A stretch of DNA of 64,000 bases, from assembly GCA_963767005.1 (NCBI GenBank), contig CAVYCN010000004.1:160001-224000 (forward strand), read 5' to 3'. The stretch comes from an uncultured Actinomycetes bacterium. Its GTDB lineage: Bacteria; Actinomycetota; Thermoleophilia; UBA2241. Numbering within the stretch: the stretch's first letter is position 1; each line of letters opens with the position of its first letter. Positions 272 to 27,226 of the stretch are shown in pieces. Made by a program: the position numbers and the translations under genes. The notes under the pieces are model-generated. The model had not been told where the DNA came from and did not search any database. It saw only the letters and a list, made by a program, of their open reading frames with translations.

Positions 272-310
272 GTCTCCCTCGCTTTGGTCGCTTCCTTGCT
301 GGTCCTTGTC

Positions 311-344
311 GACCTCCTCGGCGGCTTCGTCGCCCGAGGAGGTC
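311..344. other. Intergenic stem-loop between thiolase and kdd
   Basis: GACCTCCTCGG (311-321) is the exact reverse complement of CCGAGGAGGTC (334-344); inner CGGC-TTC-GTCG can also pair; no U-tract. Confidence 0.6.
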
Positions 345-374
345 CGAACTACCGTGGTGCCGTGGCCGCGGCCG

Positions 375-1571: not shown

Positions 1572-1664
1572 TACTGCCTCCTGAGATACCGGGTGCGCCC
1601 CTGCGGGTTCTGTCGCGGCTCGTCCGCGCCCTCGGGTCGCCTGATTGCAATCATGGACAACCTA

Positions 1665-2411
1665 TCACGCCTTTTCAGCGGGCGTTTTGGCCCTTCTGGC
1701 CACTTCCTGCGCCAGGAATGAGGCCACTTCGACAGGCGTCGTGCGGGGCCCGAAGCCGGCGTCGTAGCCGAGCTCCTTGGCGAAGGCGTTGTTGATGCGC
1801 GGGCCGCCCACGATGAGGACGAACCGCTCGCGCACGCCCTCGGCCTCGAGCAGCTCGATCATCTTCGTCAGGTGCTGCACATGGATGTTCTTCTGCGTCA
1901 CGATCTGCGAGATCAGGATCGCGTCGGCGGCGCGCTCGAGGGCCGTGCGCAGGAGCTGCTCGCAGGGGATCTGCGAGCCCATGTTGAGCACGGTCATCTG
2001 TGGATAGCGCTCGAGCCCGTAGTTGCCGGCGAAGCCCTTCATGTTGAGGATCGCGTCGATGCCGACCGTGTGAGCGTCGCTCTCGATCGCCGCGCCGACG
2101 ACCGACAGCTTGCGACCGAGCTGCTCCTTGATGAAGGAGTTGGTCGCGTAGTAGTCCATCGTCTCGACCTCGAGGTAGTCGCCCTTGACCTCGTCGGGGT
2201 CGATGCCGGTCTGGGTGCGACCGTAGGCCACGAAGAACGTGAAGGCCGGGTCGATCGCCTTGCACTCGGCGATGCCGACCTCGCGGAAGCCGAGCTTCTC
2301 GAGGAACTGCTTGCCGACGTCGGCCGCCTTCTGCGAGTAGGCGATGGGCAGCGTGAACGAGAACTGGATAATGCCGTCGTCGCGGGTGTCGCCGTAGGGC
2401 AGGACGATCAT
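1665..2411 (-). CDS. kamE: Lysine 5,6-aminomutase beta subunit (B12-binding)
   Basis: Starts MIVLPYGDTRDDGIIQFSFTLP at ATG 2411 (ATGA overlap with kamD stop); DAHTVG cobalamin base-off motif followed by NMKG PLP lysine; GYDAGFG. Confidence 0.93.
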   Translation of the reverse strand: MIVLPYGDTRDDGIIQFSFTLPIAYSQKAADVGKQFLEKLGFREVGIAECKAIDPAFTFFVAYGRTQTGIDPDEVKGDYLEVETMDYYATNSFIKEQLGRKLSVVGAAIESDAHTVGIDAILNMKGFAGNYGLERYPQMTVLNMGSQIPCEQLLRTALERAADAILISQIVTQKNIHVQHLTKMIELLEAEGVRERFVLIVGGPRINNAFAKELGYDAGFGPRTTPVEVASFLAQEVARRAKTPAEKA

Positions 2412-4036
2412 GACTGCCTCCCTTCGGCCAGCGGTGCGGCTTCGACCTGGAACACGCGGCGCGGTGGCGCCGGCGGGCCGCTCGGGCGGCCTTCGCGGAG
2501 GGCGTCGTAGAAGGGGTTGAAGTAGTCGGTGGCCTTGACGACGACGCCCTCGAAGCCACGGCCGCCTTCGGGCTCGCGCTTCACATCGGCGAACTCGCCG
2601 TTCTCGAGCGCCTGGAACAGGCCGATCTCGCGGACGTGCTCGAGCTGCTCGACCGCCTTGGCGAGGACCAGCGCGGCGCGCTCCTCGACAAGGCTGCCGC
2701 CGCGGATCTGCACGCACTCGGCGAGGTGGCGGTTGGCCTCGAAGACGTACTTCGCGTTCTTGATCGACACGTAGCGGTCCTGCAACAGCGGCGTGTGGAG
2801 GGCCTCGGTGAGCATGCCGAGCAGCATGATGTCCTGGCCGGTGAAGATCCCGGTGAAGTTGAACATGCCGTCGATGATGTGACCCTGGAAGACGTCGCCC
2901 GGCATGTACTTGGTCGGCGGCATGTACTTGATCGGGTAGTCGGGGAAGCACTCGCGGATGAGCAGCGCGTCGGCGACCTGGTAGACGACCTGGTCGGGCG
3001 TCGCCGGGTTGATCTCGAAGGCGTGCCCCAGGCCGATCTGCCAGGGCTCGAGGTTGGCGCGCAGCGCGAACTCCTCGTTGATGAAGTCCGAGGAGAGCAC
3101 CGTGTGGGCCTGCTCGTAGGCGTCGGCCGTGGTCAGGTAGTTGTCCTCGCCGGTGTTGATGATGATGCCGGCGCGCGCGTTGATCATGCGCGACAGGTAC
3201 TGGTCGACGAATGTGCGCTTCATGTTGATGTTGCGGAAGATGATGCCGTACATGGAGTCGTTCAGCATCATGTCGAGGCGCTCGAGCGCGCCCATCGTGG
3301 CGATCTCGGGCATGCACAGGCCGCTTGCGTAGTTGCACAGGCGGACATAGCGGCCGAGCTCGGCGCCGACCTCGTCGAGCGCCGCCCGCATGTAGCGGAA
3401 GTTCTCCTGGGTGGCGTAGGTGCCGCCGAAGCCCTCGGTGGTGATGCCGTACGGCACGTAGTCGAGCAGGCTCTGGGCGGTGGTGCGGATGACGGCGACG
3501 ACGTCGGCCCCCGCGCGGGCGGCCGCCTGCGCCTGGACCGCGTCCTCCTTGATGTTGCCGGTGGCGACGATCACGTAGACGTAGGGCCGCTGGGCCTCGC
3601 CGGTGGCCGCGACGAGCTCGGCGCGGCGGGCGCGCACGGCGTCGATGCGGGCGACGCCCTCGCCGGCAAGCTCGCTGGCGCGCGCCTCGACCGCCGCGCG
3701 CCGCGCGGCCGGCACGGGGCCGAGCTCGAGCGCGCCGGCGGCGACCGCCTCGGCGACCTGCTGTGCGGTCTTGCCCGTCTGCAGCATGGCGTCGACGAAC
3801 GGCGTGATCACGCCGCCGGGCAGCAGTGCGCGGGCGTGCTCGACCACGACGTTCACGAGCGGCACGTCGATGTCGTTCACGCCCTCGATGCCCAGCAGAC
3901 GCAGCGTGGTGCGCTCGACCGTGTCGGTCGTGTGCGCCGCGATGTGCTGCCAGACGTCGTCGGCGATGGCCCGCGCGGCCTCGCGCGCGCGACCCACCAT
4001 CGACTCGTCGAGCGAGAGCATGTGATCCACGTTCAC
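2408..4036 (-). CDS. kamD: Lysine 5,6-aminomutase alpha subunit
   Basis: TTDTVERT, YVIVATGNI, AVIRTTAQSLLDYVPYG, GGTYATQENFR, NYASGLCMPEIA, IIINTGEDNYLTTADA, KYMPPTKYM motifs. Confidence 0.95.
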   Translation of the reverse strand: MNVDHMLSLDESMVGRAREAARAIADDVWQHIAAHTTDTVERTTLRLLGIEGVNDIDVPLVNVVVEHARALLPGGVITPFVDAMLQTGKTAQQVAEAVAAGALELGPVPAARRAAVEARASELAGEGVARIDAVRARRAELVAATGEAQRPYVYVIVATGNIKEDAVQAQAAARAGADVVAVIRTTAQSLLDYVPYGITTEGFGGTYATQENFRYMRAALDEVGAELGRYVRLCNYASGLCMPEIATMGALERLDMMLNDSMYGIIFRNINMKRTFVDQYLSRMINARAGIIINTGEDNYLTTADAYEQAHTVLSSDFINEEFALRANLEPWQIGLGHAFEINPATPDQVVYQVADALLIRECFPDYPIKYMPPTKYMPGDVFQGHIIDGMFNFTGIFTGQDIMLLGMLTEALHTPLLQDRYVSIKNAKYVFEANRHLAECVQIRGGSLVEERAALVLAKAVEQLEHVREIGLFQALENGEFADVKREPEGGRGFEGVVVKATDYFNPFYDALREGRPSGPPAPPRRVFQVEAAPLAEGRQS

Positions 4037-5226
4037 ACCTTCTTTCGGACTGCGTCGCTCCGGGCCCCCGGCGGCTCGTGGCCGCCGGGCCGGCCGGCTG
4101 TTGTCGCGTCGACGCCGGCCGGCAGGCTGGCCAGGCCGTGCACGACGTCGAAGACGGGGGCGCGATCGCCGACGGCGTCGGCGATCGCGCCGAAGAAGAC
4201 CTTGGGGTTGTAGGGCTGCGGAAAGCGGTACGGGTTCGTCGTGACGGCCAGCACGCGCAGCTCGGTGAGCACGCGCACGTCGACGCTGCGGCGGCGGCAG
4301 CGCGCCACCGTGGCCGGCGCCAGGATGAGCACGGTGGCGTCGCGCACGACGAGCGTGACGGCGCGCCGCGGCGGCAGCGTGCGCAGGAAGTCGTCGGCGA
4401 ACTCCTGGGTGACGGCGCCACCGATGTACAGCGTCCGGGCCTCGCGGCGCTCGACCTCGCGGGCCACCCGCACGCCTTCGCCGACCGCGGTGTGCAGGTC
4501 GAGCGGCGTGGGTCGGCCCCGGCGGTCGATCGTGACCGCGCGGGCCCCGTCGAGCGCGTCGCCGTCGAGGAGGTCCCGGGTCGTCTCGTCGACGGCCGAC
4601 AGCGTCAGCATGGCGAGCGTGGCCTGCGTGATCTCGACGGTCTCGGCGAGCGTGTCGGCCACGAGGCCACCGGTCGCCATGATCACCGCGTCGCTCACCC
4701 GCGGCGAGGCGCTGCCGAGCCGGTTGATGGCGCCGTCGACCAGCACCAGGCCGGCGCCCAGGGCGTGCAGGCGGCCCGCCGTGGCGGCGACCTCGGCGAG
4801 GGTGGTAGGACCGCTGACCTCGACGGCGCGGTCGCCCACGGCGCGGCCGATCACGACGCCGCCGAGCGACGTGTGGAAGGGCAGGCGCTCGAGGTGCTCC
4901 ATGGTGTAGTGCGAGCGGTCGAGCGATCCGACGGTCGTCGCGATGAGGGTGTCGCGCGGTGGCACGATGCGCGGCTTGTCGAGCCCCGTCAGGTGGTCGG
5001 TGCGCTCGCCGTCGAGGCCCAGCGAGGTCAGGCCGAACCGCTGCGGCACGTTGTCCATGAGGGCGTTGACCACGGTGGTCTTGCCCGCGTTCTTGACGAG
5101 GCCGATCACGGCGATCGTGCGGGCGCCGCTCGCCGCGACCACGTCGAACAGGGTGGGCGCCGCGGCCGGGCGCGGCGCGCCGGCCGCCGCTCGCGGGTCG
5201 CGCGCCGGTGTGCCCGGCGAGCTCAC
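4033..5226 (-). CDS. kamB: KamB-like P-loop protein (lysine 5,6-aminomutase accessory/reactivase subunit)
   Basis: IGLVKNAGKTT, GLTSLGLDGE...DKPRI, LVDGAINR motifs; overlaps kamD start. Confidence 0.75.
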   Translation of the reverse strand: MSSPGTPARDPRAAAGAPRPAAAPTLFDVVAASGARTIAVIGLVKNAGKTTVVNALMDNVPQRFGLTSLGLDGERTDHLTGLDKPRIVPPRDTLIATTVGSLDRSHYTMEHLERLPFHTSLGGVVIGRAVGDRAVEVSGPTTLAEVAATAGRLHALGAGLVLVDGAINRLGSASPRVSDAVIMATGGLVADTLAETVEITQATLAMLTLSAVDETTRDLLDGDALDGARAVTIDRRGRPTPLDLHTAVGEGVRVAREVERREARTLYIGGAVTQEFADDFLRTLPPRRAVTLVVRDATVLILAPATVARCRRRSVDVRVLTELRVLAVTTNPYRFPQPYNPKVFFGAIADAVGDRAPVFDVVHGLASLPAGVDATTAGRPGGHEPPGARSDAVRKKV

Positions 5227-14862: not shown

Positions 14863-15438
14863 CTACTGGCCGGTCGCGCCGGTCGTGGCCGTGGGGGCGG
14901 GCGTCACGGTGCCGGGCGCGCCGGTCGGCGGCGAGCCCGGCGTCGGCGAGATCACGACGCCGGCCGGGGTGGGCGTCACGCTGACGCCCGGCGTGGTCGT
15001 GCCCGACGTGCCCGAGGTCGCACCGCTCGTACCGCCCGAGGGGACGTAGACCGTGGTGCCGTCGGGCAGCCGGTAGAACTGCCCGATCAGCGTGCCGACG
15101 CCCGAGACCTGCTGGCCCGCCTTGAGGTCGAGCCGGGTGATCTGCTCGCCCTTCTTGGTGATGACCTGCATGTCGGACTGCCCGGGGTTGGTGACGATCG
15201 TCACGTTCTTCGAGGTGAGGATCCCCGACAGGCCGATGCCGGTGAGGGCCGCGAGCAGAAAGGCGACGGCGAGCACGATGGCGACGTCGAAGAGATTGAC
15301 GACGCCGTCGAGCGGGTCGCCGTTGCGGTCGGTGCGGTCGATGCGGCGGCGCCCCATGTAGCGCAGCCGGCGCCCGTCGCCGGGCTCACGGTCGAGCGGC
15401 GCGCTCGCGTGCGGAGGGGTCTCGACGGTCGTGCTCAC
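14863..15438 (-). CDS. DUF2149-family single-TM protein with Thr/Pro-rich tail (start 15438 or 15358)
   Basis: DPLDGVVNLFDVAIVLAVAFL TM motif, NPGQSDMQVITKKG, YRLPDGTTVYVP; directly follows an ExbB/MotA gene. Confidence 0.8.
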   Translation of the reverse strand: MSTTVETPPHASAPLDREPGDGRRLRYMGRRRIDRTDRNGDPLDGVVNLFDVAIVLAVAFLLAALTGIGLSGILTSKNVTIVTNPGQSDMQVITKKGEQITRLDLKAGQQVSGVGTLIGQFYRLPDGTTVYVPSGGTSGATSGTSGTTTPGVSVTPTPAGVVISPTPGSPPTGAPGTVTPAPTATTGATGQ

Positions 15439-15454
15439 GGCGCCGGCCGCCGCC

Positions 15455-16405
15455 CTAGAAGAGCTCGCCGTCGGACGGCGTCGCCTCGTCGCGACCCGCT
15501 GCACGGGTCCCGTCGGACGGGGCGCCGCCGGCGGTGAGCGGCTGCAACGAGATCACCTCGGTCGGCTCGTCGGACTGGTCTGCCGGCGCGCCGTCGCGGC
15601 CCGCCGCGAGCGCCGGCTCGCCGGTCGCCTCGTCGAAGGCGTCCTGCGATCGGCTCTCGCCGTCGGCGCTCGCCGCCAGCGTGAGGTCGGGGAGGTCGTC
15701 GTCGCCGTCGTCGAGGTCGCCGCGCCGCCGGCGCGGCGGGCCGATGCGCAGGCGCCCGCCGCCGCCCTCGAGCAGCTCGAGCAGGTACTCGAGGTCGGAG
15801 ATGTCCTGCTGGTAGAAGCGGTCGCGGACGATGCTCACGATGAATCCCAGCCCGCCGATCAGCAGGCCGATGACCGTGACCGAGAAGGCGATCTTCAAGT
15901 TGTCGGTGAGCTGCTTTGTATTGCCCTGGGCGAGGCCGGTGAGGGCCGGAGCGAGCGGGATCAGGGTGCCCATCAGGCCGAGCATGGGGCCGACGCGCAC
16001 CAGGATGCGCGTCTTCTCGAGCCGCTTGACCGTGTAGAACTCGTACTCCTGCAGGAGCTTGAGCGGCTTCTCGGCGATGCGCTCGGTCTGGTAGTTGCGG
16101 ATCAGGTCGAAGATGAAGCGCGCGACGACCGTGGAGTAGGTGTTCTCCTGGAGGTACTTGTAGGCGCGTCGCGGCTGGCCCTTGGCGAAGGCGTCGCGCG
16201 CCTTGAGCGCCCTGATCTCGAGGGCCTCGAGGTCGCGATAGCGCACGCGCAGGTACAGCTCGTAGAGGAACCACCCGACCTCGACGACGGCCCAGCCGAG
16301 GCAGAAGAGGGCGGCGAGGAGCACCGGGTAGAGCAGGATCCGCGAGACGTCGTAGATCGCCTGCTGGATGCTGTGGGCCACGGTCGCGGCGATGACTGGC
16401 TGCAC
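15455..16405 (-). CDS. MotA/TolQ/ExbB proton channel family protein
   Basis: N-terminal TM, then RVGPMLGLMGTLIPL...LTDNLKIAFSVTVIGLLIG (PxxGLxGT TM2-TM3); acidic low-complexity tail. Confidence 0.88.
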   Translation of the reverse strand: MQPVIAATVAHSIQQAIYDVSRILLYPVLLAALFCLGWAVVEVGWFLYELYLRVRYRDLEALEIRALKARDAFAKGQPRRAYKYLQENTYSTVVARFIFDLIRNYQTERIAEKPLKLLQEYEFYTVKRLEKTRILVRVGPMLGLMGTLIPLAPALTGLAQGNTKQLTDNLKIAFSVTVIGLLIGGLGFIVSIVRDRFYQQDISDLEYLLELLEGGGGRLRIGPPRRRRGDLDDGDDDLPDLTLAASADGESRSQDAFDEATGEPALAAGRDGAPADQSDEPTEVISLQPLTAGGAPSDGTRAAGRDEATPSDGELF

Positions 16406-16414
16406 GATCTTTCG

Positions 16415-18214
16415 TCACTCCTCGCCGGCCGGTGGCGGCCCGCTCGCTCGCTGGTGGGACCGCCAGAACGAGGCGTCCTGGGGCAGGGTCTGGCCGCGCG
16501 CCGCTCCTCCGAGGACGCCCAGCAGGCGCCGGCGCACGAGCCACGATCCGACGAACCCCAGGGGCACGAGCGCCGCCAGAGCCGTGCCGACCGCGATGGC
16601 CGCGTGATTGCCGCCGCCCGAACCGCCGCCGCCGCCACCCGCGACCTGGCCCGTGACCGACGCGCTCGCCGAGGGGGTGGTCGAGCCGGTCGGGAAGGGG
16701 CTGGCCGTCGGCGTGTACCCGGAGCTCGGCGAGAGCGTGGCGCTGGGCGTCGCCGTGGGCGTCGACGTGTGGTGTGTGGCGGTGCCGGACCCGCTGCCCG
16801 TGCCGCTCGACCCCGAGCCGGTGCCGCCGGTCGAGCCGCCGCCGGCGTGAGTGCCGCCGCCCGTCGCGACCGGCACCGCCACGGTGAAGGTGCGCTCGAT
16901 GGTCGCGCGGTTGCCGGCGCGGTCCACCGCCGTCACGGACCAGGTGTGGCGGCCGTCGGTGAGCTTGGTGAGGTCGAGCCTCAGGCGCGAGGTCGTGACG
17001 TGGGCATGGCCGGTGCGGTTGACGCCGTCGACCGTCACCCGGACCGCGTGCGCGGCGATGCCGGTGCCGCCGGCGTTGTCGAAGTAGCGCGCCGTGATCT
17101 CGACCGCGCGGCCCGCGAAGCGGGCGCCGGCCTTGGGCAGGACGTGCGACGTCGCGAAGCTCGGCGCGAAATGGGTCAGCTTGTTCGGCCCGTGCGGAAC
17201 GGGGAGCGTGTGGCCGCTCAGGGCGACCGCGACCTGCATCGTCGCCCCCATCACGTTGCCGAGGTCGCCCGGGAACTCGTGGTACGAGCCGTTCGCCTGG
17301 AGCAGCCTGGCCAGGAAGGTATAGGGCGTGTGGCCGCTCTGCGCGAGGCCGTGCGGGTCGACGCCGGCCGCGTTGAGGCCTTCGATCGCCATGGCCGTCG
17401 AGAAGGCGTTGACGTAGCCGCCCTGCGTGTCGACGAAACCGCCGGCCCACGAGCCGCTGCTGCTCTCGGTGGCTTGGCGCTCCTCGATGAAGGCGGCCGC
17501 GTCCTTCACCACCTGGTCCTGGCGCGCCACTCCGGCGGCGACGAGCGCCTGCACCGCGAGCGCGGTGTCGGTCGTATCGGAGGTCGTGAGCGGCTGCGAG
17601 CCGTAGCCACCGTCGCCGTTCGGCCCGCCACCGCTGCCGTCGCTTGCGGCCGCGGCCTGCAGCCAGGCCACGGCCTCGCTCACGGGGGGCCCGCTCTCGT
17701 GCGCGCCGACCAGGGCGAGCACGGCCCAGGCGGTCGTCGTGGTCGACAGGGCGGTGCCGCTGCCCGGCGCGTAGAAGCCGTCGGTCAGCGACTGATACGA
17801 CTCGAGCTTGCCGACCAGGTCGATCTGGGTGCTGCCGGCGCTTGCCAGGAGGTCGGTCCGGTTCGCCGCCTTGTAGGCAAGGATGCACAGGGCGTAGTAG
17901 GCGGCCGCGTTGCCGCTGTTGGTGGCCGCCGTGACGAGGTTGGTGTCCTGCAGGAAGCCCACCGGGCTGCGCCCGTCCGACTTCCAGAGCCCCGGGCTGT
18001 TGGCGCCGGCCGCGATCGCGAGCGTGGCCCAGGGCGTGGTGACGGCGCTGCCGCTCGCGCCGGTGTACGAGAAACCGCCGTCGGTCCGCTGGTGGGCGCG
18101 CAGGTAGTCGAGCGCCTTGGTGACGCCGGCCGGCGCCGCCGCCGCCGGCGCGGCCGGCACGAACAGGACGCCGACCAGGGCGAGCAGCAGGACCCCCCTG
18201 TATGTCTTGGTCAC
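16415..18214 (-). CDS. Secreted, C-terminally membrane-anchored protein with prenyltransferase/squalene-cyclase-type (QxxDGGF) repeats
   Basis: GTG 18214 with GGAGG RBS; signal peptide ending PAAAAP; repeats LDYLRAHQRTDGGF, LESYQSLTDGFY, VAWLQ...DGGYG, AAFIEERQ...GGF, FLARLLQANGSY; beta-rich domain; Ser/Thr/Gly linker; TM followed by RRR. Confidence 0.8.
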   Translation of the reverse strand: MTKTYRGVLLLALVGVLFVPAAPAAAAPAGVTKALDYLRAHQRTDGGFSYTGASGSAVTTPWATLAIAAGANSPGLWKSDGRSPVGFLQDTNLVTAATNSGNAAAYYALCILAYKAANRTDLLASAGSTQIDLVGKLESYQSLTDGFYAPGSGTALSTTTTAWAVLALVGAHESGPPVSEAVAWLQAAAASDGSGGGPNGDGGYGSQPLTTSDTTDTALAVQALVAAGVARQDQVVKDAAAFIEERQATESSSGSWAGGFVDTQGGYVNAFSTAMAIEGLNAAGVDPHGLAQSGHTPYTFLARLLQANGSYHEFPGDLGNVMGATMQVAVALSGHTLPVPHGPNKLTHFAPSFATSHVLPKAGARFAGRAVEITARYFDNAGGTGIAAHAVRVTVDGVNRTGHAHVTTSRLRLDLTKLTDGRHTWSVTAVDRAGNRATIERTFTVAVPVATGGGTHAGGGSTGGTGSGSSGTGSGSGTATHHTSTPTATPSATLSPSSGYTPTASPFPTGSTTPSASASVTGQVAGGGGGGSGGGNHAAIAVGTALAALVPLGFVGSWLVRRRLLGVLGGAARGQTLPQDASFWRSHQRASGPPPAGEE

Positions 18215-18265
18215 GGTGCCTCCCGAGGTCCGCCGGCTCCCGCGGGTCGGACCACAGACGGCGCT

Positions 18266-18274
18266 ATTGTACCA
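18266..18274 (-). promoter_or_regulatory. Extended -10 promoter of the surface protein/ExbB/DUF2149 operon
   Basis: Minus strand TGGTACAAT (TGn-TACAAT) about 50 nt upstream of the GTG start. Confidence 0.5.
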
Positions 18275-18418: not shown

Positions 18419-19471
18419 ATGCCCGCGCTGCTTTCCATCGTCGTGCCGGTCTTCAACGAGGCCGGCAGCCTCGAGCCGCTCTACCAGGAGATCGTCGCCG
18501 CGCTCGCCGAGCGCGGCGCGTTCGAGGTCGTCTTCGTCGACGACGGGTCGACCGACGGCTCGCTCGTCGCGATGGAGCGGCTCGCCGCCGAGCACGACGG
18601 CGTGCGCGTCGTGCGGCTGCGGCGCAACTTCGGCAAGGCGGCGGCGCTCACGCATGGCTTCGCCGAGTCGCGCGGCGAGCTCGTCGTCACCATCGACGGC
18701 GACCGCCAGGACGATCCGGCCGAGATCCCCAAGCTGCTCGCCAAGCTCGACGAGGGCTACGACCTCGTGTCGGGCTGGAAGCAGAGCCGGAAGGACCCGT
18801 TCTCCAAGACCGTGCCGTCGAAGCTCTTCAACTGGACCGTGCGCACGTCGACCGGCGTGGCCCTGCACGACTTCAACTGCGGCCTCAAGGCCTACCGGCG
18901 GCCCGTGATCGAGCACGTCAAGGTGTACGGCGAGCTCCACCGCTACATCCCGGTGCTCGCGAGCGACCTGGGCTTCCGGGTGACCGAGGTCAGGGTCGGC
19001 CACCGACGTCGCACGAGCGGCCGCTCGAAGTACGGCTGGCGCCGCTACGGGCGCGGCTACCTCGACCTGCTCACGGTCCTGTTCCTGGGCCGCTACCGCC
19101 AGCGGCCCCAGCACCTGTTCGGCGGCATCGGCACCTTCCTGGTGTTCGTCGGCGTGCTGATCGACCTGTACCTCACGATCGACAAACTGCGCGGCCACGC
19201 CATCGGGCAGCGGCCGCTGCTCGTGCTCGGCACGCTGCTCATCATCGTCGGGATCCAGCTCCTGTCGCTCGGCCTTATCGGCGAGCTCATCACCCAGGCG
19301 CGGGCGCGCGACAAGCGCGACGACTACGAGGTCGAGCGGGTGATCGACGGCGCGGCGGCGCGCGCGGTGCGCGCCGCCGCCGACGTCCCGGCGCCCGGCC
19401 CGGACGGCGCCGCCGCGCCAGTCGGCGACCCGGCGCGCCCGCCGGCCGCCGGCCGCCCGGCGGCGTCGTGA
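18419..19471 (+). CDS. GT2 polyprenol-phosphate glycosyltransferase (ArnC/DPM-like)
   Basis: MPALLSIVVPVFNE, FVDDGSTDGS, RNFGKAAA, IDGDRQDDP, HDFNCGLKAY, two C-terminal TMs. Confidence 0.9.
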   Translation: MPALLSIVVPVFNEAGSLEPLYQEIVAALAERGAFEVVFVDDGSTDGSLVAMERLAAEHDGVRVVRLRRNFGKAAALTHGFAESRGELVVTIDGDRQDDPAEIPKLLAKLDEGYDLVSGWKQSRKDPFSKTVPSKLFNWTVRTSTGVALHDFNCGLKAYRRPVIEHVKVYGELHRYIPVLASDLGFRVTEVRVGHRRRTSGRSKYGWRRYGRGYLDLLTVLFLGRYRQRPQHLFGGIGTFLVFVGVLIDLYLTIDKLRGHAIGQRPLLVLGTLLIIVGIQLLSLGLIGELITQARARDKRDDYEVERVIDGAAARAVRAAADVPAPGPDGAAAPVGDPARPPAAGRPAAS

Positions 19472-19505
19472 GCGCCCGCCGCCGACCCGGCGGCCGCCTC
19501 GCCGC

Positions 19506-20630
19506 ATGACGCTGCGGATCGCCTATCTGGGCACGTACGACCCGTCCTACGCGCGCAACCGCGTGCTGATCGACGGCCTGCGCGCGGCGGGCGCCGAGGT
19601 GATCGAGTACGCGGCCCCGCTCGACTCGTCGCTCACGGCGGCGCGGCTCGCGACGCCCGCCGGCATGCGGCGGCTGGCCGCCGAGCTCGCTCGCGTCCAC
19701 CTGGCGCTGCTCGCCCGCCACCGCGCTGGCGTCACGTTCGACGTCGTTACGGTCGGCTACCCGGGGCATCTGATCGTGCCCTTCGCCTGGGCGGTGGCCC
19801 GCGTCCGGCGCGCTCTGCTCGTGTTCGACCCGCTCGTGTCGCTGTTCGACACGTTCGCCGGCGACCGCGGTCTGCTGGCCGGCGACAGCGCCGCAGGCAT
19901 GGCCGCCGGCGCAGTCGACCGCGTGGCGTTCGCGCTGCCCGACGTCGTGCTCGCCGACACGCAGGCCCACGCCGACTACTACGTCGCCGCTGTCGGCGTG
20001 CCCGCGGCGAAGCTCACCGTCGTGCCGGTCGGCGCCCTGCCCCTGGCGGGCGCGACGGGCGCGGCACGGACGCCCGCGCCCGGCGCGCCGCTGCGCGTGG
20101 TGCAGTACGGCCGCTGGAGCCCTCTGCACGGCCTCTCAGCGGTGCTCGACGCGGCCGAGGATCTGTGCGACGAGCCCTGGGTCTTCGAGCTCATCGGCGA
20201 CGGCCAGCTCGCCGACTGGCTCGCCGCCGAAGTGAAGCGCCGCGGCCTGGGGTCGGTCGACGTGCAGGGCCCGCTGCCGCCCTGGCGCCTGCGTGGCCGG
20301 CTCGTCGCCGCCGACGTCTGCCTGGGCGTGTTCGGCACCTCGGAGAAGGCGGCCAGGGTCGTGCCCAACAAGGTCTACGACGCGCTCGCCGCCGGCCGGC
20401 CCCTGGTGACCGCCGACTCGCCGGCGGCGCGCGAGCTGCTCGAGGACGGCCACGACGCGCTGCTCGTGCCGGCCGGCGACGGCGACGCGCTCGCCGCCGC
20501 CCTGCGCCGGCTCGGCAAGCCCGACGAACGCGCCCGTCTGGGCGCCGCCGCGCTCGATCTGTACCGGCGGCGCTGCACGCCCGAGGCGGTGGCGGCCACG
20601 CTGCTCGCGGCGCTCGAGGACCGCCTGTGA
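19506..20630 (+). CDS. GT4 (GT-B) glycosyltransferase
   Basis: YARNRVL, YGRWSPLHG, DVCLGVFG...VPNKVYDALAAGRPLVT. Confidence 0.85.
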   Translation: MTLRIAYLGTYDPSYARNRVLIDGLRAAGAEVIEYAAPLDSSLTAARLATPAGMRRLAAELARVHLALLARHRAGVTFDVVTVGYPGHLIVPFAWAVARVRRALLVFDPLVSLFDTFAGDRGLLAGDSAAGMAAGAVDRVAFALPDVVLADTQAHADYYVAAVGVPAAKLTVVPVGALPLAGATGAARTPAPGAPLRVVQYGRWSPLHGLSAVLDAAEDLCDEPWVFELIGDGQLADWLAAEVKRRGLGSVDVQGPLPPWRLRGRLVAADVCLGVFGTSEKAARVVPNKVYDALAAGRPLVTADSPAARELLEDGHDALLVPAGDGDALAAALRRLGKPDERARLGAAALDLYRRRCTPEAVAATLLAALEDRL

Positions 20631-21619
20631 GCGACGCCCGGGCCCCGGCCCGACGCCGCCGCGCGACCGCGCTGCGCGTCGCCCAGGCGGCGTTCGTCGT
20701 GCTCGTGGTGCTCTTCATTGCGCGCTACCTGCGCCACGCCTGGCCGGCCGTCGACGCCTACCGCTGGCGCCTGCGGCCCGGCCTGCTCGTCGCGTCGGCC
20801 GTCCTCGTGCTGCTCTACTACCTGGGCAACGCGCTCGTCTGGTGGCTCATCCTGTTCCACTCCGGCCTGCGGGCCCCGCGCACGCCGGTCGTGGCGACCT
20901 GGGGCAAGTCGATCCTCGCGCGCTACGTCCCGGGCAACGTCTTCCAGTTCGTGAGCCGCGCCTGGATGAGCCACCGCCAGGGTCTCGACGTCGACCGCGT
21001 CAGCGCCGGCATGGTGTACGAGCAGGTGCTGAACATCGCCGGCGCGCTCGCCGTGACGGCGGCGCTGTTCCCCCTCTGGCACTTCGAGCGCAGCGACACG
21101 ACCTGGGCGCTGCTCGCCCTCCCCGTGATCGTCGTCGCCTTGCACCCGCGCGTGTTCGCCCGCCTCGCCGCCGTCGCCCTGCGGATGGTGCGGCGGCCGC
21201 CGCTCACGCAGGTGCTGCCGTTTGGCACGGTGCTCGGCCTGCTCCTCGCCTTCGCCGGCCTGTGGCTCGTCGCCGGCCTCGCCATGTGGACGCTGGCCGC
21301 GGCCGTCACGAGCGTCAGCGGCTCCGCCTATCCCGAGATCACTGCCGGCTTCGCCATGGCCTTCGTCGCCGGCATGGTCGTGTTCTTCGTGCCGAGCGGT
21401 ATCGGCGTGCGCGAGGGCGTGCTCGCCGCCGCCACGGCGACGGTCTTCGCCGGCGGCGGGGTCGCCCTCGCGTGGGCATTGCTCGCCCGACTGTGGCAGA
21501 CTGCGCTGGAGCTTGCGTTCGTGGGCGCTGTGACCCTCGTCGACCGCCGCCGGTCGACCGGCGACCGCCCCGGCGGCGGGCCGCCCCCCGCCCCTCGCCC
21601 GCAAAGAGACGACGCGTGA
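20627..21619 (+). CDS. Lysylphosphatidylglycerol-synthase-TM/flippase-like membrane protein
   Basis: GTG overlapping the GT4 stop; multi-TM; ARYVPGNV and VPSGIGVREG motifs. Confidence 0.8.
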   Translation: MSDARAPARRRRATALRVAQAAFVVLVVLFIARYLRHAWPAVDAYRWRLRPGLLVASAVLVLLYYLGNALVWWLILFHSGLRAPRTPVVATWGKSILARYVPGNVFQFVSRAWMSHRQGLDVDRVSAGMVYEQVLNIAGALAVTAALFPLWHFERSDTTWALLALPVIVVALHPRVFARLAAVALRMVRRPPLTQVLPFGTVLGLLLAFAGLWLVAGLAMWTLAAAVTSVSGSAYPEITAGFAMAFVAGMVVFFVPSGIGVREGVLAAATATVFAGGGVALAWALLARLWQTALELAFVGAVTLVDRRRSTGDRPGGGPPPAPRPQRDDA

Positions 21620-21638
21620 CCCGGAGGTCTGCCCACCG

Positions 21639-23297
21639 GTGAGCAACCGCCGCACGAAGTCGAGGAAGCGTCCGCCGCGGCCCGCGCCGAAGCCGGCGCG
21701 CGCTGCGACTGTCGCGACGCCTCCGGCTGACCCCGCCGCGCTCGCCCGGCGCTACTTCGGCTACGTGATCGTCGCCATGGTCGTGGCCGCCGTCATCCTC
21801 ACCCTCCTCTCGATCCAGCGCTACCGGAACTTTTACGGCGGCCGCTTCGACCTGGGCAACATGGTCCAAGCCGTCTACAACACGGCCCACGGCCACTTCC
21901 TGCAGGTCACGAGCGCCGACGGCAACGGCCGCCAGATGTCGCGCCTGGGCGCTCACGTCGACCCCATCCTGGCCGCCTTCGCCGTGCCCTGGCTGGTCTG
22001 GCCGAGCCCGATGATGCTGCTGGTCGCGCAGGCCGTGATCGTGTCGCTGTCGGCCTGGCCGGCCTACCGCCTGGGCCTGCGCGTGCTGGGCGACGCCCGC
22101 GCCGCCTTCCTGCTGTCGGTCGCGCTCCTGCTGTACCCTCCGCTCGAGTACGCGGTGCTGAACGAGTTCCACCCCGTCACGCTGGCCATCCCGCTCCTGC
22201 TCTTCGGCTTCGTGTTCGCCGACGAGGGCCGCTGGTGGCGTGCCGCTCCGTTCCTCGTGCTGGCCGCCCTGTGCAAAGAGGACATCCCGCTCGTGATCGC
22301 CATGATGGGCCTGTGGCTCGCCTTGCGCCGCCGGTCGTGGCGGCCGCTCCTGATCACCGCCGCCGCGGCCGCCTATTTCGTGGTCGCCGTCAAGGTCGTG
22401 CTGCCCCACTACTCGCCCGGTGGCAGCCCCTTCCTCGATCGCTACGCCGACCTCGGCTCGAGCGTGAGCGGCGTTGGCCTGAACCTCGTGCTCAAGCCGG
22501 GCGTCACCCTGGGCCACCTCTTCTCGGGATCGGACCTGCGCTACCTGCTGCAGCTCCTCTGGCCGTTCGGTCTGAGCTCGCTCGCGAGCCCCCTGACGAC
22601 CCTGATCGCGGCGCCCGAGCTCGCCCTGAACGCGCTCGCCAGCAACCCGCTGCAGCGCTCATACGAGTTCCACTACACGGCCGGCGAGGTGCCTTTCGTG
22701 TTCGCCGGCGCCGTGCTGGGCGTGGCCCGCGTGCGGCGCTGGCTCGCCGGGCGCGCCGGCGGCACCTGGCGCCGCCGTGCCGAGCTCGCGACGGTCGGCA
22801 CCCTCGCCACCGCCGTGCTCACCATGACGGTCGTCGCGAACTTCGTGCTCGGACCGCTGCCGTTCTCGCTGCCGGGCGCCCACTACTCGGGCAAGAACTA
22901 CGCGGTGAGCGGCCACGCCAAGGTGCTCGACATGGCGATCCGCACGATCCCGAGCGCCGGCGGCGTCACAGTGAGCACCGAGAACAACGCCGGCTCGCAT
23001 CTGTCGGCGCGCCGCGTCGTCTACACGTTCCCGTACATCGGCAACGCCCAGTACGTCATCGTCGACGACAAGAACGGCTTCGTCTACGACCACGCGGACA
23101 CCGTCGGGCATTCGCAGGCCCTCGGCGCGCTCGTGCTCAACCAGGCCTACCAGTCGACCTTCGCGCGCGACGGCGTGTACGTGTTCCGGCGCGTCGGCGC
23201 GGGCACGGGGGCGACGGGCACGGGGGCGACGGGCACGGGCTCGACGCCGGCGGCGAGCACCTCGCCGTCGCCGGGGTCGACTGCGTCCACGCCCTGA
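21639..23297 (+). CDS. DUF2079-family membrane protein (putative GT-C)
   Basis: FDLGNMVQAVYN, LGAHVDPIL, NEFHPVTLA, CKED, FHY motifs; Gly/Thr/Ser tail. Confidence 0.8.
   Translation: MSNRRTKSRKRPPRPAPKPARAATVATPPADPAALARRYFGYVIVAMVVAAVILTLLSIQRYRNFYGGRFDLGNMVQAVYNTAHGHFLQVTSADGNGRQMSRLGAHVDPILAAFAVPWLVWPSPMMLLVAQAVIVSLSAWPAYRLGLRVLGDARAAFLLSVALLLYPPLEYAVLNEFHPVTLAIPLLLFGFVFADEGRWWRAAPFLVLAALCKEDIPLVIAMMGLWLALRRRSWRPLLITAAAAAYFVVAVKVVLPHYSPGGSPFLDRYADLGSSVSGVGLNLVLKPGVTLGHLFSGSDLRYLLQLLWPFGLSSLASPLTTLIAAPELALNALASNPLQRSYEFHYTAGEVPFVFAGAVLGVARVRRWLAGRAGGTWRRRAELATVGTLATAVLTMTVVANFVLGPLPFSLPGAHYSGKNYAVSGHAKVLDMAIRTIPSAGGVTVSTENNAGSHLSARRVVYTFPYIGNAQYVIVDDKNGFVYDHADTVGHSQALGALVLNQAYQSTFARDGVYVFRRVGAGTGATGTGATGTGSTPAASTSPSPGSTASTP
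23201..23245 (+). repeat. 15-bp coding tandem repeat (about 3 copies) encoding GTGAT
   Basis: GGGCACGGGGGCGAC x2 plus GGGCACGGGCTCGAC. Confidence 0.8.
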
Positions 23298-23314
23298 AGC
23301 GGACACGCCTCGCC

Positions 23315-24994
23315 GTGGACGCCGAGCTCGAGGGCCGCAGCGCGACCCAGGTCCGCGACCGGACGCCGGCCGTCCTTGCGGTGGCGTCGCTTGCCGCCGT
23401 CGCCCTCGCCCTGGGCCTCATGCACCTTGCCGGTCTGCCCGGCGTCGACGCGGCGGCGCACGCCTACAAGACCGGCCTCGTGGCGCGGCACCAGTCGCTG
23501 CTCTGGGACGATCTGTGGTACTGCGGGTCCTACGGCGTCGTCGTCTACGGGATCGTGTACTACCTGCTCGCGGCCCTGGTCGGCGCCGTGCCGGTCGTGC
23601 TGGTGTCGGCCGGTCTGCTGCCGGTGCTGTTCCATCTCTACCTGCGGCGCTCATGGGGCGTGCGCAGCCCGCTGCCGGCCGCAAGCCTCGCCGTCCTCAC
23701 CGTCGCCTACCTGCTGAACGGCCAGGCGCCGTTCCTGCTGGCCATGGCGCTCACCCTGCTGGGCCTCGTCCTGCTGGCCGGCGGGCGACCGCTCTGGGCG
23801 GCGCTGCCGATCGGCCTCGCGGCGTTCACCAACCCGGTCGCCGTGGTCGCCGGGGCCGTGTTCCTGGTCGCCGAGGCGATCGCCCGGCCGCCGGCGCGCC
23901 GCCCGCTCGCCGTGCTCGTGGCCGGCCTCGTTCCCTTCGCGCTGCTGTGGGCCGGCGTGCAGCTCGCCTTCCGGGCGCGCGCCTGGTACCTGGCCCAGCC
24001 GCTCGAGCTGCTCAAGTGGACGGCGGTCGCGGCCGCCGGCGTGGCGCTCGCGCACTTTTCGAACGACCCGCAGCGACGGGCGCCACGGGCCGTGTTCGTG
24101 GTCGCCGGCGCCGTCTGTCTCGCGGCCCTCGCCGTGCCCGATGAGCTCGGCAACAACGCGGCTCGCTTCCTCGCGCTGTTCGCCCTGCCGGTCGCGCTCA
24201 CCGTGCGCGCCCCGCGCCTGCCGAAGGCGGCGACGGCGGCGCTGCTCGCCGCCGTCGCCGCCGTCCAGCTCGCCGCGCCGCTCACCGACCTCGCGCGGGC
24301 CGGCGACCGCACCCAGACGTCGAAGGCCTTCTTCGCGCCGGCTCTCGCCTTCGCGACCGCTCACGAGTCGCCCGATTTTCGCTGCCACGTCGTCGCCCTG
24401 CGCCTGCACTGGGAGGCCGCATACTTCCCCGATGCGGGCATCCCGCTCACGCGCGGCTGGTTCCGCCAGGACGACTGGCTGCACAACGAGGTGCTGTATC
24501 GGCGGCCGACGCCCGCCCGGTACGTCGCCTGGCTGCGCGTGTGCGGCGTGCGCGACGTCTTCGTGCCGCACGCCGCCCTCGACATGAGCAGCGCCGGCGA
24601 GCCCGGCCTCATCGCCCGTTCGGGCGCCTTCGTGCGCGTCTTCGAGTCGGCCGGCTGGACCGTGTACCGGCTGCGCCTGCCGTCGCCCCTGGTCGTCGAC
24701 GCCCGGCGGGGGGCGGCGGACACGGCGGCGACGCTGCCGCCGGCCTCGGTCGGAGCCGAGGTCGTCGCGATGGGTCAGGCAGCCACGACGATCGCCGTAT
24801 CGCGTCCGGGCACGTACCTGCTGAAGGTGAGCTGGACGCCCTACTGGCGTCTCGGTGCCCCGCCCGGGTCGGGCACGCCGGCCGGCCTGGCGCGCGGCCC
24901 CGGCGGCTGGACGCTGCTGCGCGCCCCGCGCACGGGCCGCTACGTGCTGCGCATGCACTTCGACCTGCACACGGCGCTCGACCAGATCTTCTGA
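23315..24994 (+). CDS. Polytopic membrane protein, possibly GT-C fold
   Basis: GVDAAAH...WDDLWYCG, about 11-12 hydrophobic segments, HWEAAY, LTRGWFRQDD, C-terminal soluble domain; lies in a glycosylation cluster. Confidence 0.6.
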   Translation: MDAELEGRSATQVRDRTPAVLAVASLAAVALALGLMHLAGLPGVDAAAHAYKTGLVARHQSLLWDDLWYCGSYGVVVYGIVYYLLAALVGAVPVVLVSAGLLPVLFHLYLRRSWGVRSPLPAASLAVLTVAYLLNGQAPFLLAMALTLLGLVLLAGGRPLWAALPIGLAAFTNPVAVVAGAVFLVAEAIARPPARRPLAVLVAGLVPFALLWAGVQLAFRARAWYLAQPLELLKWTAVAAAGVALAHFSNDPQRRAPRAVFVVAGAVCLAALAVPDELGNNAARFLALFALPVALTVRAPRLPKAATAALLAAVAAVQLAAPLTDLARAGDRTQTSKAFFAPALAFATAHESPDFRCHVVALRLHWEAAYFPDAGIPLTRGWFRQDDWLHNEVLYRRPTPARYVAWLRVCGVRDVFVPHAALDMSSAGEPGLIARSGAFVRVFESAGWTVYRLRLPSPLVVDARRGAADTAATLPPASVGAEVVAMGQAATTIAVSRPGTYLLKVSWTPYWRLGAPPGSGTPAGLARGPGGWTLLRAPRTGRYVLRMHFDLHTALDQIF

Positions 24995-25053
24995 GGAGTC
25001 GCGCGGGCGCCGGCACGGCAGCGCCCGTCGGTGAACCGGGCCGCTCGCGAGAC

Positions 25054-26238
25054 TCAGGCCACCCAGCTGAACATCGCGAACTTCGCGGTGAGCGCGACGC
25101 AGCAGGCGATGAGGACGCCGGCGATGATGCGGTGCGCTCGCGGTCGCCGCTCGGTGAAGAGCGCGGCGCTCATGAAGATGGGGAAGGCGGCCAGCACGAA
25201 GCGCGGCATCGACATGAGCGGCATCGAGGTGGCTGGGAACAGCAGCGGGTAGCCGATGGTCACGATGGCGTAGAGCGAGAGGGCGAGCGGCAGTCGTCGC
25301 AGCCCGTAGACGATGGGCAGCACGCCGATCGCGAGCGACCCGAGGTTGATGATGTTGGCGGCCGCGAGCGGCATGACGGCGCCGGGCTGCGAGGCGGGCC
25401 AGTAGAGGTGGCTGGTCTGTCCCGAGAGGATCTGGCGGGTGCCCTGGAAGGCGGCCTCGAGCGACTTCCACAGGGCGAACGTCGGCACCGCGAGGTAGCG
25501 GCGCCACTGGTCCTGGACCTGAGCGAACAGCAGCGGCTTGCCGAACCGCAGGCTGAGGTAGGCCATCCAGACCATGAGGCCCTCGGGGATCATGAGCAGC
25601 GAGGCGGCGGCCGCGTCGGTGCGGCGCAGCTTCCAGTCGCGCTGCTCGGCGTAGCAGACCGCCATCGGCACGATCAGCAGGAAACCGGCGCTGCGAGTGA
25701 GCGCCGCGAGCAGGCCGGCCAGGCCGGCGAGCTTCCAGCGGCCCTGCGTCGACCAGAGGATGCAGACGATCGACAGCAGCAGGAACAGCGACTCGCTGTA
25801 GACGGCCTGCCAGTAGAAGGCCGTCGGGAAGATCGAGAGGTACAGGCAGGTGCGGTAGGCGACGAGGCTGCCGTACTTGGGCGCGACCAGCCGGTAGAGG
25901 CAGTAGATCGCCCCGAAATAGCAGGCCAGCGAGAGGACGATGCCGGCGACCACGAGGTTGTTGTCGAAGACGATGCCGAGCCAGCGCACCATCAACGGGT
26001 AGAGCGGGAAGAACGCGACCGTGCCGTCGTTGCTGGCGTAGCCGTCGGCGGCGACCTTCACGAACCACACGCCGTCCCACACCGCCCAGGGGTTGAAGAC
26101 GTGGGCGAGGAGGCCGTGGAAGGGCTCGGCCAGGCGCGGCAGGCGCTGCGCCCAGGGGGCCGGCTTGACGCCGATCAGCCAGGTGGCCAGGCCGGCGACC
26201 ACGCCGGTGAGGACCCGCGAGACGACCGCCATGACCAT
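25054..26238 (-). CDS. PIG-V-like mannosyltransferase family protein (GT-C); start uncertain, frame open to 26487
   Basis: WDGVWFVKVAADGY, AFFPLYP, YSESLFLLL, LTRSAG, SMPRFVL. Confidence 0.85.
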   Translation of the reverse strand: MVMAVVSRVLTGVVAGLATWLIGVKPAPWAQRLPRLAEPFHGLLAHVFNPWAVWDGVWFVKVAADGYASNDGTVAFFPLYPLMVRWLGIVFDNNLVVAGIVLSLACYFGAIYCLYRLVAPKYGSLVAYRTCLYLSIFPTAFYWQAVYSESLFLLLSIVCILWSTQGRWKLAGLAGLLAALTRSAGFLLIVPMAVCYAEQRDWKLRRTDAAAASLLMIPEGLMVWMAYLSLRFGKPLLFAQVQDQWRRYLAVPTFALWKSLEAAFQGTRQILSGQTSHLYWPASQPGAVMPLAAANIINLGSLAIGVLPIVYGLRRLPLALSLYAIVTIGYPLLFPATSMPLMSMPRFVLAAFPIFMSAALFTERRPRAHRIIAGVLIACCVALTAKFAMFSWVA

Positions 26239-26401
26239 CGTGCGGCGCAGCAGATCGGGCGGGGCCGTGGCGGCCTGCCCGGCTGGGCCGGCGTCTGTGG
26301 TCGGCTCCTCGAGCGCGTGCTCGATGTCGGTCTCTGGGGACGGTGTGGCCGTGCGTGCTCCTGCGGGGAGGCTGTCGCTTGCGTCCGACCGGGCAAGTAT
26401 C

Positions 26402-27226
26402 TCACGAGGCCGGCGGTGGTGCGCCGGCGGCGGCGCCCAGCCCGGCCAGGCGCTCCTGCAGCGCGAAGCGCAGACCGGCGGCCGCACGATCCGCGTCGGC
26501 TTTGGTCTCCTGCCAGATGGTGAGGCGCAGCTTGACGGCGTCGGCGCCGAGCTCGGTCACGGCGAGCGAGGGCTCCCGGTCGGGGGGGCGGCCGCGGCTG
26601 AAGGCCGCGGCCGCGTCGAGCGCCGCGCGGCGCACGTCGGCGAGCGCGACGGCCGCCGGCACGACGAACTCGACGGCCGCCGCGCTCGCCTCGTCGACGA
26701 TCGTGAAATTGCGGATCACCTTGCTGGCGAGCTGCTCGTTGGGGATCACGATGCGGCTGTTGTCGGCCGCGCGGATGTAGGAGTAGGTCAGCCGCACCTC
26801 CTCGACGACGCCCTCGAGGTCGTCAATCGCCACGTGGTCGCCGATGCGCACCGGCTGGGCGAGCGCGACGATCACGCCCGACACGAGGTTGGCCAGGGCC
26901 GAGCGCGCGGCGAAGCCGACGACGAGAGCGGTGATGCCGGCCGAGGCGAGCAGGCCGCGAGCCAGCGGGCCGACCTCGGGCAGCACCACGAGCGCGGCCA
27001 TGACCCCGACGAACACGATCACCGCCACGATCAGCCGCCGCGCGACGCGCAGGCGCGTCTCGTCGGCGACCGGCAGGGTGCGCGAGATGGCGCGCGAGAT
27101 GCCGCCGCCGTGGTCGCGTAGCAGGCGATCGACGACGACGGCGACGACGACGGTGATGGCGAGATACGCCAGAGAGTGCGCGATCTGGCTCACGCTGGCC
27201 GCGACGGGGGCTGGCACGGTCGGCAC
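26402..27226 (-). CDS. MscS-family mechanosensitive channel
   Basis: GFAARSALANLVSG...PVRIGDHV...GVVEEVRLTYS...IVIPN. Confidence 0.88.
   Translation of the reverse strand: MPTVPAPVAASVSQIAHSLAYLAITVVVAVVVDRLLRDHGGGISRAISRTLPVADETRLRVARRLIVAVIVFVGVMAALVVLPEVGPLARGLLASAGITALVVGFAARSALANLVSGVIVALAQPVRIGDHVAIDDLEGVVEEVRLTYSYIRAADNSRIVIPNEQLASKVIRNFTIVDEASAAAVEFVVPAAVALADVRRAALDAAAAFSRGRPPDREPSLAVTELGADAVKLRLTIWQETKADADRAAAGLRFALQERLAGLGAAAGAPPPAS

Follow-up and report, generated by a model that had tools for sequence, protein, structure and literature searches.

Ton-type motors have been described as Gram-negative machines that reach the outer membrane, and an SHLS motif has been defined for the N-terminal transmembrane helix of TonB/TolA-type transducers (PMC12905483; here and below, statements on cited papers refer to excerpts of them). 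What could a motor subunit of the ExbB kind be doing in a bacterium that appears to have a single membrane? The question is raised by a group of three genes, hereafter the trio, in a stretch of 64,000 nucleotides from an uncultured bacterium of the class Thermoleophilia (contig CAVYCN010000004.1, positions 160,001 to 224,000; "the window" below is this whole stretch). The trio encodes a tail-anchored surface protein with a helical barrel, an ExbB/TolQ/MotA-family protein and a DUF2149 protein. Since in relatives the trio ends an uptake operon headed by a cobalamin (B12) riboswitch, it likely forms an ion-driven motor that would aid B12 uptake by pulling on the surface protein. We propose that this single-membrane bacterium couples an ExbBD-like motor to a corrinoid-capture protein anchored by its tail, a reading to which we assign a probability of roughly 0.55.

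A conserved three-gene unit

The trio consists of three open frames on the minus strand (18214-14863), with intergenic gaps of 9 and 16 nucleotides (nt), in agreement with the tight operon reported in a preliminary description of this DNA. Its features are as follows.

18266..18274, minus strand: extended -10 promoter element (TGn TACAAT), unique in the window and kept in relatives
18219..18224, minus strand: ribosome-binding site GGGAGG, 4 nt ahead of the gene 1 GTG, read from the sequence
16415..18214, minus strand: gene 1, tail-anchored surface protein of 599 residues, GTG start, with signal peptide, toroid, immunoglobulin (Ig)-like domain, stalk, transmembrane (TM) helix and cytoplasmic tail
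17180..18136, minus strand: alpha/alpha toroid (the barrel), residues 27-345, five QW-like repeats, no conserved DxDD (structure model and alignments)
16868..17179, minus strand: Ig-like beta domain, residues 346-449 (Pfam Big_13; model strands 364-445)
16604..16867, minus strand: Ser/Thr/Gly/Pro stalk, residues 450-537, predicted disordered (model confidence, pLDDT, below 50 for 458-541)
16418..16603, minus strand: C-terminal TM helix (538-560, L-x-P-L-G-F) and conserved cytoplasmic tail, candidate motor-docking element (alignments)
15455..16405, minus strand: gene 2, 316 residues, ExbB/TolQ/MotA-family channel subunit, HmuU-like (Pfam, PDB profile, substitution rates)
14863..15438, minus strand: gene 3, 191 residues from the GTG at 15438, DUF2149, HmuV-like (Pfam, conservation, model, substitution rates)

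The extended -10 element had also been noticed at the outset, and it holds up well: TGGTACAAT at 18274-18266 is the sole TGnTAnAAT on either strand of the window, and TGnTAnnnT stands at the corresponding place in 17 of 17 relatives that carry the trio alone. A sigma-70 scan found no site at the trio promoter because that scan requires a -35.

DUF2149 was found in 31 of 36 genomes of the family, in 4 of 24 other genomes of the class and in 17 of 401 of the phylum. Conservation of the linkage had been set beforehand as a check on the proposal. Of the 31 family genomes with DUF2149, 29 keep the order barrel-ExbB-DUF2149. Among 36 metagenome loci, 9 were too short to judge, and in 25 of the other 27 the barrel is followed by ExbB. 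These counts come from kin rather than from independent lineages. Counted by locus, the barrel directly precedes ExbB in 29 of 36; five do not have it there and two lie at contig ends, for both of which the barrel followed by ExbB was seen on another contig.

Between the window and seven relatives, the ratio of non-synonymous to synonymous substitution rates (dN/dS, by a simple counting method and at high GC) was 0.03-0.20 for ExbB and 0.06-0.28 for DUF2149, and the motor genes are under strong purifying selection in the stand-alone clade. On these ratios and the conserved promoter, we reject the idea that the trio is a decaying relic. The three genes form a real, conserved and selected unit.

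In relatives the trio ends a probable B12 uptake operon

The trio occurs in two settings within the family. In 19 genomes, including the host of the window, it stands alone at one site, between parB and a glycosyltransferase cluster (the copy in genome G005 lies on a short contig). In 12 genomes it lies directly behind a CbrT-like S component of an energy-coupling factor (ECF) transporter, in the order DUF4430 surface protein, DUF4430 lipoprotein, EcfT, double ATPase, S component, barrel, ExbB, DUF2149. The S component of these relatives matches ECF-CbrT (PDB 6FNP) with E 4e-13, and a cobalamin riboswitch heads all nine ECF-joined loci that have upstream DNA, the other three being cut short. 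The DUF4430 lipoprotein gave no match against PDB sequences. In a tree of 40 barrels, the stand-alone state requires two origins from within the ECF-joined group. The link is also seen outside the family: in locus L067 a distant barrel, ExbB and DUF2149 stand behind a cobalamin riboswitch, and in the archaeal loci L143 and L147 barrel-bearing tail-anchored proteins precede ExbB and DUF2149, with a DUF4430 gene upstream.

Corrinoid, heme and isoprenoid had all been named as candidate ligands. The relatives' riboswitch, CbrT-like ECF and DUF4430 genes speak for B12; heme and isoprenoid found no support. The host itself has no riboswitch at the trio and no match for CbrT or DUF4430, and the B12 link here is therefore one of inherited context only. 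For the ancestral operon a B12 role has good support; in the window's genome it is no more than likely.

Two described systems come close to the relatives' operon. Proteins that combine a toroid with SLBB domains, encoded with CbiO/CbiQ-like genes in organisms that do not synthesize B12, were predicted to be B12 scavengers (Burroughs et al. 2007, PMC1796856). Like that system, the operon brings together a toroid, paralogous SLBB genes and an ECF-type transporter; unlike it, the toroid and SLBB are separate genes, and the toroid carries a stalk and tail helix and is followed by the motor pair. The host's toroid is without SLBB. The ECF-CbrT cobalamin importer of Lactobacillus delbrueckii (PDB 6FNP) runs on ATP alone, with neither a surface barrel nor an ion motor (PMC5997447); its S component has matches in the relatives' operons but not in the host genome. 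In searches of the open-access literature we found no paper on the trio or on a motor joined to a B12 ECF transporter; supplementary regulon tables may name the genes.

The motor pair

The early assignment of gene 2 to the MotA/TolQ/ExbB channels is borne out. Pfam finds MotA_ExbB (E 1.5e-7; PF01618, 31.7 bits against a cut-off of 22.9), and the best PDB profile match is E. coli ExbB (E 0.0025), where a single-sequence search against the PDB found none. Residues T147 and T177 are kept in at least 90% of 63 sequences and align with T148 and T181 of ExbB; in ExbBD, Asp25, Thr148 and Thr181 are essential, and the TonB helix lies at the periphery of the ExbB ring (PMC12905483). Beyond residue 215, gene 2 has an acidic low-complexity tail. 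A flagellar stator of the MotAB type is rejected, with a MotA equivalog score of 11.7 bits against a cut-off of 340 and with DUF2149, not MotB, as the partner. Phylogeny of the MotAB/ExbBD families includes many generic homologs of unknown function (PMC12505986).

DUF2149 (E 4.7e-23) is the sole Pfam family found in gene 3, which has one TM helix with D51 (codon 15286-15288), a small all-beta outer domain and a Pro/Thr-rich tail. D51 is the Asp of an NLFD word that had been said to be placed like that of ExbD and MotB, and in an alignment of 75 DUF2149 proteins at least 90% do have it. A complex prediction with four ExbB chains, DUF2149 and the tail helix of gene 1 scored under the mark, and weighs neither way.

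Such pairs had been said to occur in Bacteroidetes hmu loci and in methanogens, and published work agrees (PMC10434189, PMC9425974). In the hmuYRSTUV locus of Bacteroidota, HmuU and HmuV are a MotA/TolQ/ExbB protein followed by DUF2149 (PMC10434189); one paper calls them uncharacterized (PMC13227078), and a figure in another has them power the outer-membrane receptor HmuR (PMC12583661). The two families stand in identical order in hmu, beside a tetrapyrrole-handling protein, and in the trio; the trio, however, has no outer-membrane gene, TonB, receptor, HmuS/CobN or HmuT as a neighbour, and its partner is the stalked barrel. DUF2149 is also conserved in methanogens and linked to TolQ (PMC9425974), and the pair is therefore already known without an outer membrane in archaea.

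A stalked barrel protein and its proposed link to the motor

In gene 1, Pfam finds SQHop_cyclase_C (E 1.6e-7) and Big_13 (E 6e-6); the ESM Atlas gave just unnamed or prenyltransferase-repeat clusters. The AlphaFold2 model, built on 51 of 73 homologs (mean pLDDT 81.6), has a helical barrel at about 27-345, an all-beta domain at 364-445, a low-confidence stalk at 458-541 and a C-terminal helix; it is confident for the barrel and Ig domain and disordered in the stalk. Pfam and the model thus agree with the beta-rich domain, Ser/Thr/Gly stalk, single C-terminal TM helix and cytoplasmic tail described earlier. Among the five QxxDGGF repeats reported with them, the first (Q42-F48) is exact and the other four (near 141, 200, 257 and 307) are degenerate. 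By analogy with the systems discussed here, the ectodomain is a predicted corrinoid binder.

The tail helix is predicted to run N-out/C-in. It holds G553-F554 within the conserved L-x-P-L-G word, and has no SHLS motif and no His within the helix. Given this orientation and the missing SHLS, the suggestion that it takes the role of TonB can stand at most in the sense of an analog.

What points to this helix as the link is the form of the barrels that lack a motor. The ECF-adjacent barrels without a motor, eight of eight, end right after the barrel, with no Ig domain, stalk or tail helix. From this the tail helix would seem to be what joins barrel and motor, in an orientation opposite to that of TonB. 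A riboswitch directly heads only one of these eight motor-less cassettes (L194); in three it lies on the far side and on the opposite strand, two have none and two are cut short. Five stand-alone genomes carry a second, short barrel with its own ECF.

In CobN-like proteins of distant loci, the tail helix closes with a Gly-aromatic motif in 8 of 8 standing directly before ExbB and in 0 of 26 with an HmuT-like gene between, and the last helix of the HmuT-like proteins carries it in 27 of 39; because the motif was picked post hoc and the groups follow taxonomy, we treat this contrast as a lead. When the tail motif was compared with the host genome's own C-terminal helices, the counts were 17 of 21 against 23 of 47 (p 0.017), a noisy test whose control held non-anchors and the query.

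The two extra barrels of G005 that bear a tail (L198, L200) have no motor adjacent. Together with L204 and L212 they are tail-anchored barrel paralogs whose genomes have the motor elsewhere, and several clients possibly share one motor. Five barrel homologs (P0065, P0067, P0074-P0076) are fused to an ECF S component, two of them (P0065 and P0067) also with the Ig domain, stalk and tail helix; several of the five retain a DxDD-like word.

A further side observation concerns the neighbouring genes. A glycosyltransferase cluster at 18419-26487 of the window runs divergent from the trio and is kept beside it in most stand-alone loci; it is conceivable that this cluster could glycosylate the Ser/Thr stalk of gene 1.

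Envelope and corrinoid economy of the host

The host genome (3.4 Mb; completeness 100%, contamination 4.9%) has a single match each for DUF2149 and MotA_ExbB, and both lie in the trio. Two homologs bear NCBI names of Thermoleophilia. The lack of TonB, receptor and CobN genes first noted within the window holds genome-wide: we found no match for TonB_C (PF03544), the TonB-dependent receptor (PF00593), Omp85 (PF01103) or CobN, the last being missing from all 38 genomes searched. Control genomes gave the expected results in these searches. The absence of Omp85 from a complete genome fits the apparent monoderm of the preliminary description. A diderm host is rejected, there being no Omp85 or TonB-dependent receptor match, and so is a cognate cobN or tonB locus elsewhere, neither having a match genome-wide.

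The genome encodes 23 B12-binding domains, many in frames of 215-300 residues that may be corrinoid methyl-carrier proteins. With this number of domains and no match for CbiC, CbiD or CobN, the host must scavenge corrinoids. On one strand of contig C12 (L071:2296-12132) lie a cobalamin riboswitch, a cobT-containing frame, cobS, an unknown gene, a Fur-like gene (judged by eye) and a BtuFCD-like ATP-binding cassette (ABC) importer. A close ortholog of the BtuC-like permease (E <1e-80) is present in 16 of 19 stand-alone genomes against 2 of 12 ECF-joined ones, a distribution consistent with a change of importer in the stand-alone clade. Elsewhere (G000:C7:53073-53257; L070:3074-4996) the gene directly behind a cobalamin riboswitch belongs to the amino-acid-permease family (AA_permease_2, E 5e-13) and is a possible further transporter of corrinoids or of a lower ligand.

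Within the window, positions 2-5226 hold lysine fermentation genes (kdd, thiolase, kamE-like, kamD and kamB). KamD lies at 2408-4036, with a B12-binding domain at 1728-2105, 10.8 kb from the trio and with unrelated genes between. Its proximity had been taken as a sign of B12 scavenging; it adds little, because the genome has 23 B12-binding domains and KamDE accounts for just one, and we reject it as evidence for a B12 role.

The motor pair in distant loci

We surveyed the best 80 of at least 578 confirmed distant DUF2149 loci. An ExbB-like frame lies directly upstream of DUF2149 in 76 of these 80, and the gene before ExbB encodes either a multi-pass HmuT-like protein, a direct neighbour of the motor pair in 39 of the 80, or a tail-anchored protein of very diverse kinds. 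In Planctomycetota (L109, L114, L132, L164, L186) the pair stands behind DUF1559 prepilin-like genes, with or without an HmuT-like gene and without CobN. In L090/L113, L115 and L121 it follows a tail-anchored propeller-like protein and a CWB2 wall protein, with a molybdenum/tungsten (Mo/W) riboswitch just downstream in L115 and L121. One genome, G332, has five DUF2149 copies (L095, L097, L098, L101, L102), and those read follow different tail-anchored surface proteins (PKD and others). In another Thermoleophilia family (L063:298-5470), HtaA-domain genes and an iron/heme ABC importer lie upstream of a PKD protein, ExbB and DUF2149.

Weighing the B12 reading against its rivals

A number of observations weigh against a motor-coupled corrinoid receptor in this host. 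Its genome gave no match for DUF4430, CbrT or the lipoprotein, and no riboswitch was found in the window or at any of 10 other stand-alone loci scanned. SLBB/DUF4430, whether fused or in an operon, was not found in the window's genome, which speaks against placing gene 1 among the transcobalamin-like binders. At two helix starts, acidic residues present in ECF-linked barrels have been lost from the barrel clade of the window, and the stand-alone barrel sits on a long branch and evolves faster (dN/dS 0.34-0.58; Ig domain 0.38-0.86). In structure comparison, intrinsic factor (Z 20.8, root-mean-square deviation (rmsd) 3.0, 235 residues aligned), haptocorrin (20.0) and transcobalamin (19.5) come out level with glycosidases and epimerases. 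The likeness to cobalamin-carrier folds that had been pointed out is present, the toroid matching the carriers, but no better than it matches many other barrels, and judged from the model the fold does not single out B12 carriers. On the motor side, the all-beta outer domain of DUF2149 matched no ExbD structure (PDB profile search and Foldseek, nothing significant), an absence that does not rule out kinship with ExbD/TolR. The eight short barrels form one clade and therefore count as one event, not eight; they show that an ECF with a barrel exists without the motor, and in genus g7 three of three genomes have no DUF2149 match. Two family genomes, G015 and G018, keep ExbB and DUF2149 with no barrel match, and other barrel clades show Gly-Ala in place of the Gly-aromatic motif, itself chosen after the fact.

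The main rival keeps the motor-coupled receptor and supposes that the barrel of the stand-alone clade has changed its ligand or partner and no longer serves B12. The loss of riboswitch, ECF and DUF4430 in the host would fit, as would the new and conserved promoter of constitutive type and the barrel's lost acidic residues and faster evolution; the second short barrel with its own ECF in five stand-alone genomes could free the stalked copy, and elsewhere the motor pairs with many other surface proteins. Against this, the B12 operon group gave rise to the stand-alone state twice, that state goes with a BtuFCD-like importer in 16 of 19 genomes, and the host's corrinoid demand is high; we consider such a change unlikely, while taking it more seriously than the other alternatives. 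It is quite improbable that the motor serves the biogenesis of tail-anchored surface proteins (their folding, display through the wall or shedding) and not ligand release. The variety of the gene before ExbB (CobN-like, PKD, CARDB, propeller, barrel; tail helix in 23 of 31 called) and the span of partners from 300 to 2,500 residues would suit that role, but the host's other tail-anchored proteins have plain Val/Ile anchors without the motif, and the readable contexts are those of cofactor uptake: B12, heme-type HtaA with an ABC importer (L063), hmu (PMC10434189) and a nearby Mo/W riboswitch.

Less probable still is that ExbB and DUF2149 form a gated ion channel or work on a membrane transporter, sharing no more than regulation with the barrel. 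The pair without a barrel in G015 and G018 and the multi-pass HmuT-like neighbour in 39 of 80 distant loci point that way; yet when the operon split, which happened twice, it was the stalked barrel and not the ECF that kept the motor, and stalk and tail helix co-occur with the motor. That the barrel is an enzyme exported to act on envelope lipids, be it a class II terpene cyclase or a prenyl-transferring one, we regard as very improbable. Squalene-hopene and related cyclases are its best matches in sequence and structure (squalene-hopene cyclase is the closest fold, Z 26.6, rmsd 2.9, 272 residues aligned), and several ECF-linked barrels retain a DxDD-like word. The DxDD acid motif is the defining feature of class II terpene cyclases. 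In gene 1, aligned to squalene-hopene cyclase, its equivalent reads D-T-T-D, and in the 51-sequence barrel family it is not kept, with Asp in 7, 6 and 12 of 51 at the three positions; NCBIfam model scores fall far under the cut-off (SCO2321_fam 57 against 300), and the genomic context is that of B12 uptake. Judging by its title and the start of its abstract, the one paper that lists SCO2321 has no bearing on the trio.

A proposed mechanism

How would the coupled motor and corrinoid receptor work? Gene 2, by its sequence, belongs to the ExbB family and has both pore threonines. In a complex of 5:2 stoichiometry, DUF2149 would play the part of ExbD as the axle, its D51 being the Asp that carries the ion. 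Judging from co-occurrence, the tail helix would dock outside the ExbB ring, and reeling in the stalk of 90 residues, a TonB-like step in inverted topology, would open the barrel's ligand site so that the cofactor is released to an importer. In relatives, the barrel and the separately encoded DUF4430 domain would clamp B12, like the two domains of transcobalamin, and B12 would then be handed to ECF-CbrT; the operon context is observed there and the B12 binding is predicted from it. The weakest step concerns the host: there the trio is under a promoter of its own, and B12 would pass to the BtuFCD-like ABC importer, whose genes lie elsewhere in the genome. It is by analogy that we assign complex assembly, ion conduction, ligand binding and force transmission to the trio proteins.

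That analogy is closest with Ton (ExbB5-ExbD2-TonB) and Tol (TolQRA). Like them, the trio has an ExbB-family subunit that keeps both pore threonines, next to a single-pass protein whose TM helix holds a conserved Asp. The third protein is likewise single-pass, and it has the long flexible linker required by the wrap-and-pull model, according to which the linker is wound around the dimer of ExbD (PMC12905483). The trio differs in having no ExbD or TonB family match, in the all-beta outer domain of DUF2149, and in a third protein that is tail-anchored N-out, has no SHLS and itself carries the ligand domain; there is also no outer membrane to cross.

Tentatively, the proposal may be extended: ExbB-like/DUF2149 pairs might be general 5:2 ion motors that need no outer membrane, grip tail-anchored receptors by their C-terminal helix, in effect an inverted TonB that is part of the receptor, and mechanically strip tightly bound cofactors from them, the trio being the B12 version, a split bacterial transcobalamin pried open. 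We hold this wider idea to be possible rather than probable. If true, a docking helix of a general motor would explain the function of HmuUV in Bacteroidota and archaea. DUF2149/HmuV, which is conserved in methanogens (PMC9425974) and has been called uncharacterized in gut Bacteroidota (PMC13227078), would gain a testable role, for which the three-gene unit is a minimal system for structural work and for work on D51. A conserved, selected motor pair tied to a tail-anchored surface binder, in a lineage without outer-membrane genes, would be a case of nutrient capture powered by ion-driven force where there is just one membrane.

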